Assembly: GCA_964519145.1 (NCBI GenBank) | Contig: CAZFHL010000003.1 | Span: forward strand, 1 to 42,143 | Length of the DNA stretch: 42,143 bases | Direction: 5' to 3' | Origin: an uncultured Candidatus Saccharibacteria bacterium | GTDB taxonomy: Bacteria > Patescibacteriota > Minisyncoccia > Phycocordibacterales > WO2-35-19 | Shown here: in pieces, positions 2,742 to 9,585 of the stretch | How the letters are laid out: every line of letters starts with the position of its first letter | Position numbering within the stretch: position 1 is the stretch's first letter | The notes under the pieces: generated by a model | What the model saw: the letters and a program-made list of their open reading frames with translations, nothing else | The model's database searches: none | Told to the model about the DNA's origin: nothing | Position numbers and translations under genes: made by a program

Positions 2742-3425
2742 TACGGGTACATATGTTGATTATGTTGATTAATTATAGAGCGTATAAAAGGTGAATATCC
2801 TTTTTGTTTTTGTAAACACGCTCTATAAGAAAGAGCGTTTTTTGTTTAAAAAATTCAATATCCTCATATTTTAAAAATCTAAACATTTTTAGAAGATGAG
2901 GGTAGAGAATACAGTTTTGTTTGAGAGAATGAATTTTGACAAATAACCCTAAAAGTCTGAAAAGATGATTAGGTATATGCCATTGCAACATCGCTTTTAG
3001 ATTAAAATCTAAGGGGTCTTTGTTTGTTGTAAATGGAAAAACTATATAGACTTTTTATTTGGTCTTATATAGCAGAGTAAAATAAAATAAAAATCAATTA
3101 TTTCTTCAAGATGATTGATTTAAAATATTTCTAAAACATTCAGAACAGAGTTGTTCTGGTGGATAGGAAGTTAAGAGCATATGGTGGATGCCTTGGCTAG
3201 AAAAAGCGATGAAGGACGTGAGCTGGCTACGATAAGCTTCGGGGAGGTGCCTAGCAACCTTTGATCCGGAGATGTCCGAATGGGGAAACCCAACTTGCTT
3301 GCAAGTTATCCTGAGCGTAAGCGAAGGATGCAAACCCTGGGAAGTAAAACATTTCAGTACCAGGAGGAAAAGAAACCAAAAAGTATTCCGTAAGTAGCGG
3401 CGAGCGAAAGCGGAGAAGCCCAGAG

Positions 3426-3560
3426 CGTGCGAAACACATAGTTTGTAAAGTTAAAAGTTCATAAAGTTCATAAAGTTTTTAAAGTAGAAAATAAAATTTT
3501 TACTTTATAACTTTTTACTTTATAACTTTATAGACTTTGTGATTTATGTGTTTCGCATGC
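3426..3560 (+). repeat. long AT-rich palindromic hairpin (ataaagt family) inserted in a domain I variable helix of 23S
   Basis: gcgtgcgaaacacata / tatgtgtttcgcatgc base stem encloses arms built of ..ataaagtt.. / ..aactttat.. repeats. The core aaagtttttaaagta-loop-tactttataac is shared with the hairpins at 8356-8452 and 8614-8709. Confidence 0.75.
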
Positions 3561-3870: not shown

Positions 3871-4156
3871 GCATAATGTATAAAATTTTACTCTAAATAA
3901 TGGGGAGATGGAGTCACCCAATCATTCAGAATGGAAAACTAAAAGGAATCTTGGATTAAGACAAACAGCAGTCGCGCTCTGTTGGTTTTGACCAAGAAAG
4001 ACAGAAAGATTATTCTGGGTCATTTTTGGTTGGGTTAAGTTTCCAATACATGAGCTCATGTTTGGTAACAAAATCCTATCATTCCCAGGGGTAGGATTGT
4101 TCTGCAGAGCAATCCTACCCACCCATTATTTAGAGTAAAATTTTTATATATTATGC
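3871..4156 (+). other. intervening sequence (IVS) in 23S helix 25
   Basis: gcataatgtataaaattttactctaaataatgggg (3871-) and cccattatttagagtaaaatttttatatattatgc (-4156) form a ~35-bp stem. It replaces the tip of the helix between caaggagtcagagcgggtt and agtccgtcatggcgtgcc (E. coli ~540-550 region, a classic IVS site). The 210-nt core is itself hairpin-rich, e.g. gggtaggattg..caatcctaccc. Confidence 0.8.
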
Positions 4157-4817
4157 AGTCCGTCATGGCGTGCCTATTGAAGAATGAGCCAACGAGTTAA
4201 TTTATGCGGCTTGCCAAAGCAGTCGACCTGCAGAGGCTAAGTGAAAGCGAGCGTGAATAGCGCGCAATTTGTCGTATATATTAGACCCGAAGCCAGGTGA
4301 GCTTGCCATGGGCAGGGTGAAGTCATTCGAAAGAATGATGGAGGCCCGAACCGGTTGGTCGTGCGATTCCTTCGGATGACCTGTGGTAAGGAGTGAAAAG
4401 CTAATCGAACCTGGTAATAGCTGGTTCTCTCCGAAAGAGCTTTTGGGTTCGCGTCATGCGTTCCTTGCGGGGGTAGAGCACTGGAAGGTCTCGACAGGGA
4501 GAAATCTCGCGAGACCTATCAAACTCCGAATACTGCAAGTAAAAAGTATGACAGTTAGACGGCGGGGGCTAAGCTCCGTTCGTCAAAAGGGAAACAGCCC
4601 AGATCTCTATTTAAGGTCCCTAAATCATAGCTAAGTACACTTAAGGTGGTGACATTTCTCCGACAATGAGGAGGTTGGCTTAGAAGCAGCCATCCTTTAA
4701 AGAAAGCGTAACAGCTCACTCATTCAGAGATTTTGCGCCGAAGATAATCGGGGTTAAGCTATGTACCGAAACTGAGGGTTTGTAAACCTCATCAAAGATT
4801 TGTTCTTTTTGTTTTGT

Positions 4818-4905
4818 GGGGGGATGGCGGAATTGGTAGACGCAACGGACTTAAAATCCGTTGGATATTATATCCGTACGGGTTCGATTCCCGTTCCCCC
4901 TACCA
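4818..4905 (+). tRNA. tRNA-Leu (anticodon UAA), class II with long variable arm, CCA encoded
   Basis: Hand-folded cloverleaf:
- acceptor gggggga/tccccct (G1-U72 wobble)
- D arm gcg-gaattggtaga-cgc
- anticodon stem acgga/tccgt with loop cttaaaa
- variable arm ggata-tta-tatcc
- T arm acggg-ttcgatt-cccgt
- discriminator a, then cca. Confidence 0.85.
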
Positions 4906-4923: not shown

Positions 4924-4999
4924 GGGCTTATAGCTCAATGGTTAGAGCAGTCGGCTCATAATCGATTGGTTCTCGGTTCAAGTCCGAGTAAGCCCACCA
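4924..4999 (+). tRNA. tRNA with CAU anticodon (elongator Met or lysidine-dependent Ile2, not initiator), CCA encoded
   Basis: Hand-folded cloverleaf:
- acceptor gggctta/taagccc with a paired 1-72
- D arm gctc-aatggtta-gagc
- anticodon stem gtcgg/tcgat with loop ctcataa
- T arm ctcgg-ttcaagt-ccgag
There is no GGG/CCC run in the anticodon stem, so it is not an initiator. Confidence 0.8.
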
Positions 5000-5040: not shown

Positions 5041-5116
5041 GGCCAGTTAGCTCAGATGGAAGAGCAGTGGCCCGATAAGCCACAGGTCGTAGGTTCGAGC
5101 CCTACACTGGCCACCA
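5041..5116 (+). tRNA. tRNA-Ile (anticodon GAU), CCA encoded, with C instead of U at position 33
   Basis: Hand-folded cloverleaf:
- acceptor ggccagt/actggcc
- D arm gctc-agatggaa-gagc
- anticodon stem gtggc/gccac with loop ccgataa
- T arm gtagg-ttcgagc-cctac. Confidence 0.8.
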
Positions 5117-5932
5117 AAATCCAAACAATTTTGACACAATTTTTTTCTGATTTTTTGAAAATCGGATCTTTGATGAGGTTTACAAGCGGTAGGAGAGTAT
5201 TCATAACCGCAGTGAAGCTGAAGGGGTGACCCACAGTGGAGCGTTATGAAGTAAGAATGTTGGCACAAGTAACCACAATGACGCTGAAAACGCGTCACGC
5301 CGAAAGACTAAGGTTTCCTTTCCGATGTCAATCAGGGAAGGGTTAGTCGGTCCTAAGGAGATGACGAAAGTCGCATCCGATGGATTCACGGTTAATATTC
5401 CGTGACCTATATATATTTCGATGGAGGGACGGAGTGTAGTATGCAAAGCACATTATTGGATTTGATGTCTGTGTTGTAAAAATGTTGTGTAGGAAAATCC
5501 GCATAACTTGTTTTAATACAAAATTTAAGCAATATAGCAATTTGGAACTTCGGTTCTGAAGAGTTTGCAAAGCGCGCTTCCAAGAAAAACTTCTAAGATT
5601 AAATATATGTAGACCGTACCGTAAACCGACACAGGTAGTCAGGTCGAGAAGACCAAGGCGAACGAGTGAGATGTCCCCAAGGAACTCGGCAAAAAAGCGG
5701 CCGTACCTTCGGTATAAGGCCTGCCCCACACAAGTGGGGCCGCAGCTAAAGAATCCCTGGCGACTGTTTATCAAAAACACAGCTCCCTGCGAACTCGTAA
5801 GAGGATGTATAGGGGGTGACACCTGACCAATGCCAGAAGGTCAAACAACGACGTTGTGAGAGTCGCAAGATTTTCATGGTGATTGTTGTAAGCCCTGGTG
5901 AATGTCGGCAATAACTATAATTGTCCTAAGGT

Positions 5933-6170
5933 TTTGAGAATTTCATTTAATGAAGTTTTCAAAAGGACTGGGACAGTTATAGAGATAAATAGTTAGACAA
6001 AATTTAAGAGTAAAGAGACAAAATAAAGTTAGTTACACAAAAAAGAAGCTACCTAAATTACAGTAATGTAGTTTTAGTCCAAACATGACAAACAAGCGCA
6101 CCAACGTCATGGTCCCGAATCCCGCTAAGCGGGAAGGGAAAAGATAGAGTCCAACTTGAAGGAATAGTTG
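5933..6170 (+). mobile_element. group I intron at 23S site equivalent to E. coli 1931 (ORF-less, 238 nt)
   Basis: The exon reads cctaaggT|...G|agcgaaattcc and rejoins to the universal CCUAAGGUAGCGAAAUUCC. The 5' exon ends in U and the intron ends in G. A J8/7-P7-like motif aagatagagtcc lies at 6141-6152. The P1 guide was not confidently located. Confidence 0.65.
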
Positions 6171-6292
6171 AGCGAAATTCCTTGTCTGGTAATTGAATTG
6201 CCAGTTTCGAGAGCGATCTCGATAAAAAATTCGGCTTATAACGGTGGAGCCCGACTCGAAAGAAGGGTAATACCGTGGGAAGTTGTTCAGTA

Positions 6293-6427
6293 CTAATTTT
6301 TGGAAAGAAGAAAACCCCTCAGGGTTCTCTGGGGGGGTTTAGGATCGCGATTTGCCCAATATGTAACAATCGCAGAGATTATTACAGCTAAAAAAGGTAG
6401 GATCAAAAAAAGCGATTCGTTGTTCAT
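6293..6427 (-). CDS. small hydrophobic peptide (44 aa) encoded antisense to the rRNA: MNNESLFLILPFLAVIISAIVTYWANRDPKPPQRTLRGFLLSKN
   Basis: ATG at 6427 is preceded by gagga plus 7 nt. The peptide has one predicted TM helix followed by a basic tail. It uses the same frame as track ORF 6293..6475, whose listed start is the TTG of the -35 box. An imperfect GC hairpin plus a T run overlaps the last codons. Confidence 0.5.
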   Translation of the reverse strand: MNNESLFLILPFLAVIISAIVTYWANRDPKPPQRTLRGFLLSKN

Positions 6428-6445
6428 GTAGGTATCCTCTGGAAG

Positions 6446-6475
6446 GATATAAACATAGCAGAGATTAATTGTCAA
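6446..6475 (-). promoter_or_regulatory. candidate promoter of peptide A
   Basis: Minus strand: TTGACA (6475-6470), 18-nt spacer, TATATC (6451-6446). The -10 element is only moderate. Confidence 0.4.
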
Positions 6476-6577
6476 TAATATTTTGACTCCAAAAATTAGT
6501 ACTGAATTAACCCCGTAACGACTTATGTACCACTAACTAGTGGCGCATAGATAGCTTAGGTAATACAATTATATTGT

Positions 6578-7063
6578 ATGAACAGCTATAACACGCCGAC
6601 TCTGCGAAGAGAGCTCGCAAACTACATCTCCGGATATGTTGATGGAGAAGGATGTTTCTCTGTTTCGGTATCGAAACGAGAGAAATTAAAAATCGGATGG
6701 GAAGTGAAGCCAAGTTTCTGTGTCGGTCAAAATTATGATCGGCGCGAAGTACTTGACCTCATGATTGTTTACTTCGGTTGCGGTCATATACGCCGCGATT
6801 GGGGAGACAGAACCCTGAAGTATGAAGTGAGAAAGATTAACGATCTCTTAGAGAAAGTCATTCCACACTTTGAAAAATTTCCTTTAAAGTCAGCAAAGCA
6901 AAAAGATTTCCTGCGGTTTGCAGAAATCTGCCGTCAGATGAAAGTTTTAGAGCACCACAAAGTGAGCGGTTTGAGAAAAATTCTCAAAAGCGCTTACAAG
7001 ATGAATGGATCAGGGAAGCGCAAGTTACCTTTATCCATGATTCTCAAAACAATTCGCAGATGA
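6578..7063 (+). CDS. LAGLIDADG homing endonuclease (single-motif, homodimer type)
   Basis: 161 aa with LANYISGYVDGEGCFSV (LAGLIDADG motif) near the N-terminus. It lies inside the group I intron, and its stop codon overlaps the intron core motif. Confidence 0.85.
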   Translation: MNSYNTPTLRRELANYISGYVDGEGCFSVSVSKREKLKIGWEVKPSFCVGQNYDRREVLDLMIVYFGCGHIRRDWGDRTLKYEVRKINDLLEKVIPHFEKFPLKSAKQKDFLRFAEICRQMKVLEHHKVSGLRKILKSAYKMNGSGKRKLPLSMILKTIRR

Positions 7064-7446
7064 AGATATAGTCTAATGCCTACAGTAATGTGGGGTAGGA
7101 GATTCTGCTCGCGCGGGCAGAATAGTCAAACTCAAATGAAGTTCAGACGCGCACGAATGGTGTAACGACTGGGGAACTGTCTCGGGGACTCGCTCGGTGA
7201 AAATACAGTACCGGTGAAGATGCCGGTTACCTGCAGTTAGACGAAAAGACCCCGGAAGCTTTACTGTAATTTGGCATTGAGGATATGTTTTTACTGCGTA
7301 GCATAGGTGGGAGGATTTGAAGTTTGCCTTTTGGGGCAGATGGATCCGTCAGTGAAATACCACTCTGTATTGACATATTTTCTAACCTGTTCGGCAAAAA
7401 CGGACAGAGACAGTGCCTGATGGGCAGTTTTAGTGGGGCGCTATCC

Positions 7447-7492
7447 TTCAGTATTTAAAATTTAAAAAGATTTAATTTTTTTGAATACTGAA
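7447..7492 (+). repeat. small cargo-less hairpin related to the cassette terminal repeats
   Basis: ttcagtatttaaaa.. pairs with ..ttttgaatactgaa. The arms resemble the outer repeats of cassette A (ttcagtact) and cassette B (attcaaa). It sits at the very 5' end of the L2262 intron. Confidence 0.5.
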
Positions 7493-7635
7493 TCCATGGC
7501 GCCTCCAGAGATTTGTCATCTCAAAACAAACAAATAAGGGGGACCATAGAGCGAAACCTCTATGAGAAAAGTTAGCTATATGCTGAGAAATCTCTTTGAG
7601 ATAATCAGCAGGGAAGTTAAATATTCAAATTTTTG

Positions 7636-7668
7636 GAAAAAGAAAATGCCAGCTCTTACGCGACTGGC
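7636..7668 (-). terminator. terminator-like hairpin after peptide B
   Basis: Minus strand: gccag-tcgcgtaagag-ctggc followed by attttcttttt. Confidence 0.45.
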
Positions 7669-7679
7669 TTACGGTCTTG

Positions 7680-7829
7680 TTAGATGAGTTGGAACTTTCG
7701 GAAAAAGCCAATGAGGCAAAGACCGAAAATCAAAGGAACGGTGATCACCACAAAAACCATCTGATCTTGGTGGTGTTGGGGATGGGTCAATGAATGCTGG
7801 TGACCCAACCCAACCAACGCTAACCACAT
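7680..7829 (-). CDS. small peptide (49 aa) encoded antisense to the rRNA: MWLALVGLGHQHSLTHPQHHQDQMVFVVITVPLIFGLCLIGFFRKFQLI
   Basis: AAGGAG, 6 nt, then ATG (7829); stop taa at 7682-7680. The peptide has a His/Gln-rich head, one hydrophobic helix and a basic tail. It is in a different frame from track ORF 7669..7878, which starts at the TTG of the -35 box. Confidence 0.55.
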   Translation of the reverse strand: MWLALVGLGHQHSLTHPQHHQDQMVFVVITVPLIFGLCLIGFFRKFQLI

Positions 7830-7849
7830 AAGGAACTCCTTTCGTGGTC

Positions 7850-7878
7850 ATTATGGCAAAACAATGACTTTTTGTCAA
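7850..7878 (-). promoter_or_regulatory. near-consensus promoter of peptide B
   Basis: Minus strand: TTGACA (7878-7873), exactly 17-nt spacer, CATAAT (7855-7850). Confidence 0.6.
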
Positions 7879-8355
7879 GCAAATCTTGACTCCAAAAATT
7901 TGAATATTTAATCCTTCAGAGACTAAACGCTAACCTTCTTGAAAAAGAAGATGATATAGTCCGAACTTTGTGGCGACACAAAGAGTAATAATTTATCCGT
8001 TAGTTATTGATTAACACAATGCCTAAAGAGTAACGGAGGAGCCTATTAAGGTCAGCTAGGCGTGAATGGAAACCATGCCGATAGTGTATAGGCACAAGCT
8101 GGCTTAACTGCAAGACGTAAGTGTCACGCAGATGCGAAAGCAGAGCTAAATGAACCGATCGTCCGCGTTAGACGCGGCGAAAGATTATCTGACAAAAGCT
8201 ACTCCGGGGATAACAGGCTGGTACTGCCTAAGCGTCCAGAGCGACGGCAGTGTTCGGCACCTCGATGTCGGCTCATCTTATCCCGGGGGTGGAGAAGCTC
8301 CCAAGGGTATGGCTGTTCGCCATTTAAAAAGATACGCGAGCTGGGTTCAGACCGT

Positions 8356-8452
8356 ACAGAAGTTATAAAGTTAAAAGTTTGTAAAGTTTTTAAAGTAAGG
8401 GAATTAATTTTTTACTTTATAAACTTTATAAACTTTATAAACTTTCAACTGT
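8356..8452 (+). repeat. AT-rich palindromic hairpin (ataaagt family) in the P1 loop of the L2593 intron
   Basis: acag (8356-8359) pairs with ctgt (8449-8452). The right arm contains tttataaac x3 in tandem. The core is taaagtttttaaagta-loop-tactttataaac. Confidence 0.7.
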
Positions 8453-8613
8453 TGTGCAATCTGAATCCCTTCGAGAAATTATAAATAATTTTGTTTTAGT
8501 TTTTTCGTTTTAAAATTATTAAAGATATCAAGACTTTAATAATAAATGTTAGTAGATACCCGCCTTAGCTAAAAAAGCTATGGCGGGCGATGCAATCAAA
8601 TCACGGCGGTCCG

Positions 8614-8709
8614 ATGATTTATAAAGTAGAAAGTCCGTAAAGTTTTTAAAGTAAGTGCAAAATGTATTTACTTTATAAACATTATAACTTTAAAAACTTT
8701 ATGAATCAT
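8614..8709 (+). repeat. AT-rich palindromic hairpin (ataaagt family), P2 position of the L2593 intron
   Basis: atgatttataaagt pairs with actttatgaatcat. The core is gtaaagtttttaaagta-loop-tactttataaac. Confidence 0.7.
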
Positions 8710-9081
8710 TGGAATAAGTTGACTTATATCGGTGAAGTCCAATTTGGATAACACCGAGGGAACCGCGTCTGACGCGGACCCGTAGAGACTAAACGTCAAC
8801 AATTTGTTTTCTTTTGTAAGAGGTGAGGGGAGAATAAGCAATCAGTCAACCCAAACGACGAAGTATGTCGGACTGTATTTGCAGTTTCCATTTTGCAAAA
8901 AATGGATTCCATGCGTGCCACGGTACCCTCCCTCCTCTCTTACAGAGGAAAACAGATTAAGCTATAGTCCATTGCCACAAGTAATTGTGGGGTTCCGCCT
9001 TCGCTAAAAGCTATGGCGGACAAATCAAGCGTGAGACAGGTTGGTCTCCTATCTACTGCAGGCGTTGATTCTTGAGGGGAT

Positions 9082-9476: not shown

Positions 9477-9585
9477 GTGTTGGTGGCTTAACGCTAAGGT
9501 CACACCCGTTCTCATTCCGAACACGGAAGTTAAGCTTGGTAGTGCCGATGGTACTCGCAAGGGGAGAGTAGGTAGCCGCCAGCAC
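9477..9585 (+). rRNA. rrf: 5S rRNA
   Basis: gtgttggtggc...cccgttctcattccgaacacggaagttaagc...gccgatggtact...ggggagagtaggtagccgccagcac. The terminal helix is gtgttggtggc/gccgccagcac (G-U pairs). It lies about 150 nt after the 23S gene. Confidence 0.9.

Follow-up and report, generated by a model that had tools for sequence, protein, structure and literature searches.

An antisense mini-gene in a 23S rRNA intron is probably one of an apparently undescribed family of exchangeable cassettes in rRNA-operon hairpins of Candidate Phyla Radiation bacteria

The described systems closest to the element reported here are of several kinds. Type I toxin-antitoxin pairs are exemplified by hok/sok, tisB/istR, fst, and txpA/ratA. 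The endonuclease genes of the phage T4 introns in td, nrdB, and sunY have their own expression signals, endonuclease genes on the antisense strand occur in nuclear rDNA introns, and integron cassettes generally lack a promoter and depend on attC and an integrase. Phage morons are autonomous units of promoter, open reading frame (ORF), and terminator that prophages carry as additions to their genomes (Cumby et al. 2012, PMC3594210). The intervening sequence (IVS) of the 23S rRNA in Coxiella and Leptospira encodes S23p, and the rRNA transcript itself has been treated as the template for translation of this ORF (Warrier et al. 2016, PMC4990558), and the reuse of promoters before non-homologous genes is known in prokaryotes (Nijveen et al. 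2012, PMC3575422). In this study we analyzed positions 1 to 42,143 of contig CAZFHL010000003.1 of an uncultured Candidatus Saccharibacteria bacterium (assembly GCA_964519145.1), here called the window, in which a minus-strand gene, designated cassette B, forms a 295-bp insert (positions 7617 to 7911) within a self-splicing intron that interrupts the 23S rRNA gene. Comparison with similar inserts makes it quite probable that cassette B is a genuine self-contained transcription unit belonging to an apparently undescribed family of exchangeable cassettes, which occupy hairpin tips of rRNA operons, mostly helix P6 of group I introns, in bacteria of the Candidate Phyla Radiation (CPR).

In functional terms, the moron is the closest of the known concepts. 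Like a moron, the cassette is predicted to be transcribed independently, from a promoter and up to a terminator of its own, while riding on a selfish mobile element; it is present in some relatives only, its composition is unlike that of the host, and its cargo is often a small uncharacterized protein. The cassettes are unlike morons in that their host is a group I intron or an rRNA hairpin or spacer and not a phage, in that they have a common promoter/terminator shell and terminal inverted repeats, both of which morons lack, and in that they are obligatorily antisense to the host transcript. They are best read as moron-like expression cassettes lodged in rRNA-operon hairpins.

Cassette B had been singled out in an earlier reading of the DNA letters (the original prediction) as a complete mini-gene within a perfect 21-bp inverted repeat, and its parts were all found where that reading had placed them. 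The two arms of the repeat (7617-7637 and 7891-7911) enclose 253 nt, and on the intron RNA they pair with each other, extending P6. Each arm consists of an outer stem of variable sequence (7617-7627 and 7901-7911) and an invariant cassette end, which is AATTTTTGGA at 7628-7637 and TCCAAAAATT at 7891-7900. On the minus strand, a predicted sigma-70-type promoter (7850-7878) comprises TTGACA (7878-7873), 17 nt, and an extended -10 element, TG-n-CATAAT (7858-7850). With a score of 11/12 it was the top promoter-like site between positions 3000 and 10000 in our promoter scan, and plus-strand promoter-like matches near the cassette reached 9/12, the minimum of the scan. A Shine-Dalgarno sequence, AAGGAG (7841-7836, minus strand), precedes by 6 nt the ATG (7829; cassette position 72) of a 49-codon ORF on the same strand (7680-7829), MWLALVGLGHQHSLTHPQHHQDQMVFVVITVPLIFGLCLIGFFRKFQLI. 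Its stop codon lies 11 nt short of a hairpin, GCCAG..CTGGC (7668-7648), that is followed by ATTTTCTTTTTCC; hairpin and T-rich run together form a putative intrinsic terminator (7636-7668, minus strand), which also emerged from the fold. Past the hairpin (7648-7668), the minus strand reads ATTTTCTTTTT. A 69-aa ORF in another frame (7669-7878) begins at the TTG of the -35 box, as had likewise been noted, and since it starts upstream of the promoter's transcript it is not translatable from the cassette B promoter.

The interior of cassette B has a G+C content of 44%, compared to 39% in the rest of the intron, in agreement with the enrichment previously described. The ORF has 46% and thereby exceeds the coding sequence of the genome by 17 points, the protein-coding part of the window having 29%. 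The predicted peptide has a head rich in His and Gln, a single hydrophobic helix, and a tail that is basic. In an AlphaFold2 (AF2) model, residues 18 to 48 form a helix, with predicted local distance difference test (pLDDT) values of 83 to 96 in the last three 10-residue blocks, and the maximum hydropathy over a 17-residue window is 2.88. The model is consistent with a single membrane span. There is a high probability that the cassette B mini-gene is real.

The original prediction treated the unit as a one-off and proposed a search for similarly bounded inserts in other CPR introns. In two pattern scans, the unit turned out to belong to a mobile, cargo-swapping family. The pattern TGTCAA-N7-TTGACTCCAAAAATT, applied to a single genome for each species, gave matches on 3 contigs, among them contigs of Ca. 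Yanofskybacteria and Ca. Giovannonibacteria. In metagenomes, for which the spacer was relaxed slightly, 50 contigs from several groundwater and sediment projects were matched. Complete cassettes were defined by pairing each pattern match with the nearest TCCAAAAATT. Spread over 50 contigs, 54 complete cassettes of 147 to 394 nt were obtained in this way, representing 42 distinct sequences; one further cassette with a one-base variant end brings the family to at least 43 members. The hosts of the family are groundwater CPR (Parcubacteria-type) bacteria. The pattern matches on L004 and L015 are not cassettes. On L015 (1-1120), an unrelated repeat (…CCGA(T/C)CATGTGGCAAAGTTTC…GGGATCTCGGAGA…) is present in two copies inverted with respect to each other, beside G/C homopolymers, and possibly represents a different repeat family.

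The cassettes share one layout: AATTTTTGGAGTCAA-N6-10-TTGACA, 17 nt, an extended -10 box, Shine-Dalgarno sequence and ATG, cargo, hairpin and T-run, and TCCAAAAATT. Judged on sequence, cassette B matches this pattern exactly. The conserved part is a shell, of which the promoter side (AATTTTTGGAGTCAA-N-TTGACA) accounts for about 28 nt and the terminator side (the T-run plus TCCAAAAATT) for about 20 nt. Beyond the shell there is a further perfect closing stem whose sequence varies between cassette groups. The inverted ends consist of the invariant AATTTTTGGA and TCCAAAAATT plus 3 to 13 further complementary bases. The recurrence of such an architecture in 42 distinct cassettes from independent metagenomes is far in excess of chance.

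For an assessment of the predicted genes, the 42 distinct cassettes were aligned on the -35 box, and features outside the search pattern were scored. At 17-nt spacing, an extended -10 element, TGnTAnnnT, was evident, with the first T in 33/42, the A in 31/42, the final T in 36/42, and the TG in 24 to 26 of the 42 cassettes. A G-rich Shine-Dalgarno zone follows 7 to 10 nt past the -10 box, and the family consensus at the 3′ end, TTTT.TTTTTCCAAAAATT, has a T-run ahead of the end itself. These signals were specific for one strand. A Shine-Dalgarno sequence of at least 4 nt located 4 to 11 nt before the chosen start codon was found in 32/42 cassettes on the cassette strand versus 4/42 on the opposite strand, and with a threshold of at least 5 nt the numbers were 24 versus 1. 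Hairpins with a perfect stem and a T-run were present in 33/42 cassettes on the cassette strand versus 3/42 on the other. The longest ORF starting with ATG had a mean length of 50.2 aa, compared to 29.3 aa on the opposite strand and 24.3 aa in shuffled sequences (Wilcoxon p = 4e-6 and 8e-10, respectively), and covered a median of 71% of the cassette interior. For the cargo ORFs of L013 and L049, which have 58% amino acid identity, the proportion of differences was 0.23 at nonsynonymous sites (pN) and 0.71 at synonymous sites (pS), corresponding to a ratio of the two substitution rates (dN/dS) of about 0.13. The differences were distributed over the three codon positions as 17/17/34, that is, with twice as many changes in the third position. 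The conserved promoter, the strand-specific signals, and the selection in this cargo pair thus back the earlier claim of a complete mini-gene antisense to the rRNA.

A different explanation is that the insert is a non-coding structural extension of P6, with ends and hairpins that serve ribozyme folding or processing and with minus-strand gene signals that are coincidental. The position of cassette B would suit such a role. The host intron (7512-7983, plus strand) was recognized by Rfam model RF00028 with 52.9 bits (gathering score 50), and in the model alignment the cassette appears as a 266-nt insertion at the tip of P6, where it is closed by the perfect stem. Both strands of the cassette fold far better than shuffled sequences (z-scores of -7.1 and -8.2). 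In addition, a palindrome, GTCAAG-N5-CTTGAC (7874-7890), whose minus-strand CTTGAC half (7879-7874) overlaps the -35 box, covaries within the family: the sixth pair is of the Watson-Crick type in 36/42 members (G-C in 24, T-A in 9, and A-T in 3), compared to a mean of 18.9 and a maximum of 28 in shuffles. As the palindrome is located upstream of the predicted start of minus-strand transcription, it can form an RNA hairpin only in the sense RNA. It could act as such a hairpin once the intron is transcribed in sense, a counterpart to the terminator hairpin at the junction, or could be bound as a symmetric site by a protein. However, a structural extension does not predict a -10 box on one strand at 17 nt from the -35 box, a Shine-Dalgarno sequence with an ATG, long ORFs, a hairpin with a T-run, or a bias toward changes in the third codon position. 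Moreover, orthologous introns have unrelated interiors, related introns manage without an insert, and the same cassettes are found outside introns. We regard a purely structural role as very improbable.

The comparison of orthologous introns showed how the cassettes vary. Where the flanks are 88 to 98% identical, homology ends about 28 nt into the cassette from the promoter end, up to and including TTGACA, and about 20 to 25 nt from the terminator end. Between these shell ends, the -10 box, the leader, the ORF, and the terminator hairpin are all unrelated. Such cargo swaps are seen in L003/L046, in L008/L024 and cassette A of the window (see below), in L023/L022, and in L036/L007/L001; the intron type of cassette B is common to L001 and L030. 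Overall, only 17 of 50 cassette pairs with similar flanks also had a similar interior. Conversely, the pairs L009/L022 and L029/L041 share the cassette (83 to 85% identity) and not the surrounding sequence. Cassette-free introns of the same subfamilies with a short P6 exist as well. The swapped interiors and the occurrence of related cassettes in unrelated flanks argue for an exchangeable mobile module that does not simply evolve alongside the intron. As the ORF is replaced wholesale between relatives, the test for frameshifted homologues suggested in the original prediction is not applicable as it was written.

Mobility of this kind could also be that of a non-autonomous transposon resembling a miniature inverted-repeat transposable element (MITE), in which the terminal inverted repeats are the functional part and the promoter and ORF are passengers or decayed remnants. 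The invariant 10-bp terminal inverted repeats with their 3 to 13 additional bp fit this idea, the 10-mers being at the same time part of the criteria by which the cassettes were collected, and so do the same cassette in unrelated sites, the presence/absence polymorphism among related introns, and a copy outside rRNA that carries a piece of its old flank (L044; see below). MITE copies, however, share their interiors, whereas the cassette interiors are unrelated and the expression signals are maintained. The cassette flanks are inverted and not direct repeats, with no direct target-site duplication; no cognate transposase is known; and the insertion sites are almost exclusively hairpin tips of rRNA operons. 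A MITE-like element is therefore an unlikely explanation. The exchangeable expression cassette shares with mobile promoters and integron cassettes the principle of one conserved sequence beside many non-homologous genes, with modular cargo. It differs from mobile promoters by the conservation of both a promoter and a terminator end, which form inverted repeats, and from integron cassettes in that neither attC nor an integrase was seen with the rRNA cassettes.

About 35 of the 42 distinct cassettes reside in a P6 context of the form GGGAAGU-stem-[cassette]-stem-CCCCGUAnnGACU. The remaining sites are insertions in 16S rRNA genes and in the 5′ region of 23S rRNA genes, the spacer after the 16S rRNA gene, and the 16S leader. 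In L052 (4005-4338) the cassette is situated 43 nt upstream of the 16S start and in L005 (770-1079) in the spacer past the 16S 3′ end, both antisense to the operon. In L029, L038, and L039, the cassettes sit directly in rRNA insertions and not in an intron P6, which is one of the features they have in common with rRNA IVSs. Further similarities to the IVS are the location of an insert in an rRNA gene, long complementary termini forming a stem, a small ORF, and the view of the element as selfish. Unlike the IVS ORF, which represents one conserved family, the cassette cargos are unrelated to each other, antisense, and predicted to be expressed from their own signals, and cassette B is located in the intron helix P6, whereas an IVS, which RNase III excises, is inserted in a helix of the mature rRNA.

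Although the scans were strand-blind, all 49 cassettes whose orientation could be determined were antisense to the rRNA and none was sense. Four of the five orientation-undetermined cassettes lie in P6 flanks and are therefore antisense too. The only cassette found outside an rRNA operon is that of L044 (5337-5653), which lies between two protein genes and on their strand. Its closing stem is down to 4 bp, and about 60 nt of flank of the 16S-insertion type are kept on one side, which suggests that the cassette was transferred together with part of its old flank.

The predicted cargo products range from 25 to 126 aa, and 22 of the 42 are hydrophobic (at least 1.6 in a 17-residue window); the others include soluble orphan proteins. 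There were only four related pairs among the 42 cargos, one of them identical. A word-indexed search of 5.8 billion proteins with the 49-aa peptide of cassette B returned no homologue, not even the peptide itself, and an exhaustive HMMER search gave three matches, which are long repetitive junk translations and not homologues. When four cargos were searched in large protein databases no relatives were found: three had no real homologue and one matched only itself. This last one is the 83-aa cargo of L031, whose sole match is its own entry as a "hypothetical protein" and whose AF2 model is of low confidence (pLDDT 58); the 66-aa cargo of L013 had no match in the 5.8-billion-protein index. Searches of Pfam and PADLOC with 37 cargos gave nothing significant. 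The related cassettes of L029 (13292-13528) and L041 (926-1160) have neither an ORF nor a Shine-Dalgarno sequence, and their cargo of about 150 nt folds on the cassette strand into 55 pairs, of which four show compensatory and five one-sided changes and none is broken; the fold includes G-U pairs, which would be A-C on the opposite strand. This cargo looks like a small structured RNA. The 147-nt cassette of L028 likewise lacks an ORF, and no known Rfam family was detected in the non-coding cargos.

These data bear on the function suggested in the original prediction, that of a type I toxin-antitoxin-like pair. According to this idea, the 49-aa peptide is toxic, its mRNA is neutralized by pairing with the pre-23S/intron RNA, and the peptide is made upon a drop in rRNA synthesis or loss of the intron, which would stabilize the intron. 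The size and shape of the peptide, 49 aa with one hydrophobic helix and a basic tail, are indeed those of a type I toxin, hydrophobic helices are present in 22/42 cargos, and the layout by itself guarantees a perfect match to a highly transcribed complementary RNA. The antisense orientation of 49/49 cassettes and the foreign composition of the cargo, as expected of selfish modules, are also compatible with it, and a small hydrophobic peptide gene, an mRNA complementary to an abundant RNA, and a plausible addiction function are features shared with the known type I systems. However, the mechanism is neither shown nor required by these observations. The protein-index, HMMER, Pfam, and PADLOC searches revealed no homology to known toxin families. 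A dedicated antitoxin gene or promoter is absent, the only complementary transcript being the pre-23S/intron RNA, so that in cassette B, unlike in the described pairs, the partner would be the rRNA precursor or intron. Furthermore, 20/42 cargos are not hydrophobic and at least one appears to be a structured RNA, about half of the family cargos thus not being toxin-like; L044 lies outside any rRNA operon and has no rRNA antisense partner; and the antisense-only orientation is equally explained by the lethality of a terminator in sense orientation. A toxin-antitoxin function is accordingly a live, if rather doubtful, option for the hydrophobic subset and does not serve as our account of the element as a whole.

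For cassette B as a moron-like expression cassette, we propose the following mechanism. In the rRNA-sense transcript, the long perfect stem would extrude the insert as a closed side-domain of P6, so that the ribozyme should still be able to fold and splice. On the minus strand, RNA polymerase would start about 7 nt past CATAAT, near position 7843, and produce an mRNA of about 200 nt, from which a 49-aa single-pass membrane peptide would be translated starting at AAGGAG-ATG. Because the mRNA would end at the hairpin and T-run, antisense transcripts should not enter the rRNA exons. Insertions in sense orientation would place a terminator in the path of 23S synthesis and abort it, so that only antisense insertions would survive, while the reversed terminator, read as an A-run and then a hairpin, would be harmless to rRNA synthesis. 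The strict antisense orientation is thus most simply seen as a tolerance filter. In growing cells, head-on rRNA transcription and pairing with the abundant intron RNA would repress the cassette, and its expression would be expected to rise when rRNA synthesis falls. Such an inverse coupling to rRNA synthesis should be a consequence of the arrangement, whether or not it is a selected function. The cassette would ride on the intron as a moron does on a phage. Going further, we can tentatively imagine that hairpin tips are landing pads and the rRNA precursor is a universal antisense and collision repressor, which would make the cassettes a growth-rate-gated or addiction device with exchangeable orphan payloads, a possible but not a likely scenario. 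If it were true, any cargo placed between the conserved promoter and terminator ends would stay silent during growth and be switched on once rRNA synthesis ceases or the intron is lost, and the device would possibly serve as a nursery for new small proteins.

Several points weigh against the interpretation of cassette B as a genuine member of such a family of mobile genes. Its promoter, its start of translation, and its terminator are each predicted from the sequence. The terminator hairpin is weak, with 5 to 7 bp and a long loop, and failed a strict terminator scan, which missed it because of the long loop and the imperfect stem. As its own peptide has no relative, the coding status of cassette B rests on analogy to the family. 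Within the family, purifying selection was seen in one cargo pair only, and L009/L022 gave a dN/dS of about 0.9, a value which is uninformative since the two hardly differ in DNA sequence over the conserved block. Besides the terminal 10-mers, the search pattern fixed only the -35 box and the arms of the palindrome, and the bases of these two therefore do not represent independent conservation. With regard to mobility, no recombinase or transposase was associated with the cassettes and no target-site duplication was seen; a duplication of AATT was considered, and empty sites in support of it were not found. A scan of viral contigs and BLAST searches against phage and plasmid records gave no cassette match.

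The window contains further introns and a second cassette. In addition to the bacterial 23S rRNA from position 3161 and the 5S rRNA at 9479-9584, Rfam reports two group I introns (7512-7983 and 8647-8991). An insertion at about 6150 to 7100, for which Rfam makes no call, can be read as a third one by its P6 and P7 motifs. It bears a LAGLIDADG gene at 6578-7063 (Pfam LAGLIDADG_1, 5e-26) and, at its P6 tip, cassette A (6286-6506, minus strand; core 6295-6497), which is closed by a 19-bp perfect repeat and shares with cassette B the ends AATTTTTGGAAA... and ...TGTCAA-N7-TTGACTCCAAAAATT. On the minus strand, cassette A contains TTGACA, AGGA, and an ATG at 6427 that opens a hydrophobic 44-aa ORF (6293-6427). 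This ORF runs through the cassette's own terminator, a CCCC..GGGG hairpin with a T-run, and stops 2 nt past the invariant cassette end, within the closing stem.

The neighboring LAGLIDADG gene raises the question of whether cassette B is the remnant of an intron-encoded homing endonuclease gene, all the more since LAGLIDADG genes are frequent in the group I introns of CPR rRNA genes (PMC11270868). Pfam found nothing in the 49-aa or the 69-aa ORF, whereas the neighboring ORF at 6578-7063, used as positive control, was detected as LAGLIDADG_1 with 5e-26. Cassette B moreover lies on the opposite strand and has only 49 aa and a promoter and terminator of its own, and in the insertion at 6150 to 7100 the LAGLIDADG gene (in P8, as judged by eye) and cassette A (in P6) coexist. 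A decayed endonuclease gene is thereby effectively refuted. What the cassettes have in common with intron endonuclease genes is that a protein gene is nested in a group I intron, in one of its peripheral loops, and that in some cases this gene has a promoter of its own or is in antisense orientation. The differences are that the cassette cargo is no endonuclease and has no known mobility function, and that the shell is kept while the cargo is swapped.

Other features of the rRNA region were recorded alongside. Between the 23S exon and the Rfam start of the cassette B intron there is a long A+T-rich hairpin (7449-7494, TTCAGTATT..AATACTGAA). As it precedes the Rfam match, the 583-nt insertion in the 23S rRNA gene exceeds the 472-nt intron call. 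Three tRNA genes, Leu-TAA (4818-4905), Met-CAT (4924-4999), and Ile-GAT (5041-5116), lie in sense orientation inside the Rfam 23S span and are enclosed by a 20-bp perfect inverted repeat (4780-4799 and 5166-5185); the segment 4780-5185 resembles an insertion in the 23S rRNA gene that carries tRNA genes and is closed off by a stem. Within the same span, a 23-bp perfect inverted repeat (3882-3904 and 4122-4144) surrounds 217 nt, within which lies a 16-bp palindrome at 4089-4120. The insert at 3882-4144 does not have the AATTTTTGGA ends, and signals of an antisense gene were not obvious in it. Blocks of a 9-nt periodic motif (TTATAAAGT / ACTTTATAA) occur at 3436-3547, 8354-8450, and 8612-8709, near both ends of the 23S region. 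Over 47 nt (3449-3495 and 8404-8450) the blocks are 87% complementary, so that they could pair across about 4.9 kb. A role as processing stems is conceivable, as is an origin as remnants on either side of the third intron. An antisense ORF of 159 aa (5343-5822) was rejected as spurious, as it has no family match and overlaps apparent 23S exon sequence.

A survey of rRNA insertions in CPR bacteria used six-frame translation and kept only ORFs bearing domains (PMC11270868); antisense genes, promoters, or inverted repeats are not mentioned in it. Our full-text literature searches found no description of the cassette family and nothing closer than the systems compared above, in line with the original prediction, in which no described system of this kind was known. 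We rate the cassettes as a new kind of element made from ordinary parts, with functional statements that stay at the level of sequence-based prediction. Annotation routinely masks the genes and introns of rRNA. The family suggests that a reservoir of small proteins in CPR bacteria, including many membrane peptides, has been overlooked, and it points to a new modular element with a conserved shell and inverted-repeat ends, hypervariable orphan cargo, a strictly antisense position in the operon that the cell transcribes most heavily, and evident movement from intron to intron and from lineage to lineage. It bears on the persistence of group I introns that lack endonucleases, on the gating of antisense genes by rRNA, and on the birth and exchange of small genes. 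The shell would also be a compact natural expression unit for organisms without genetic tools and a searchable signature by which more such genes may be found.

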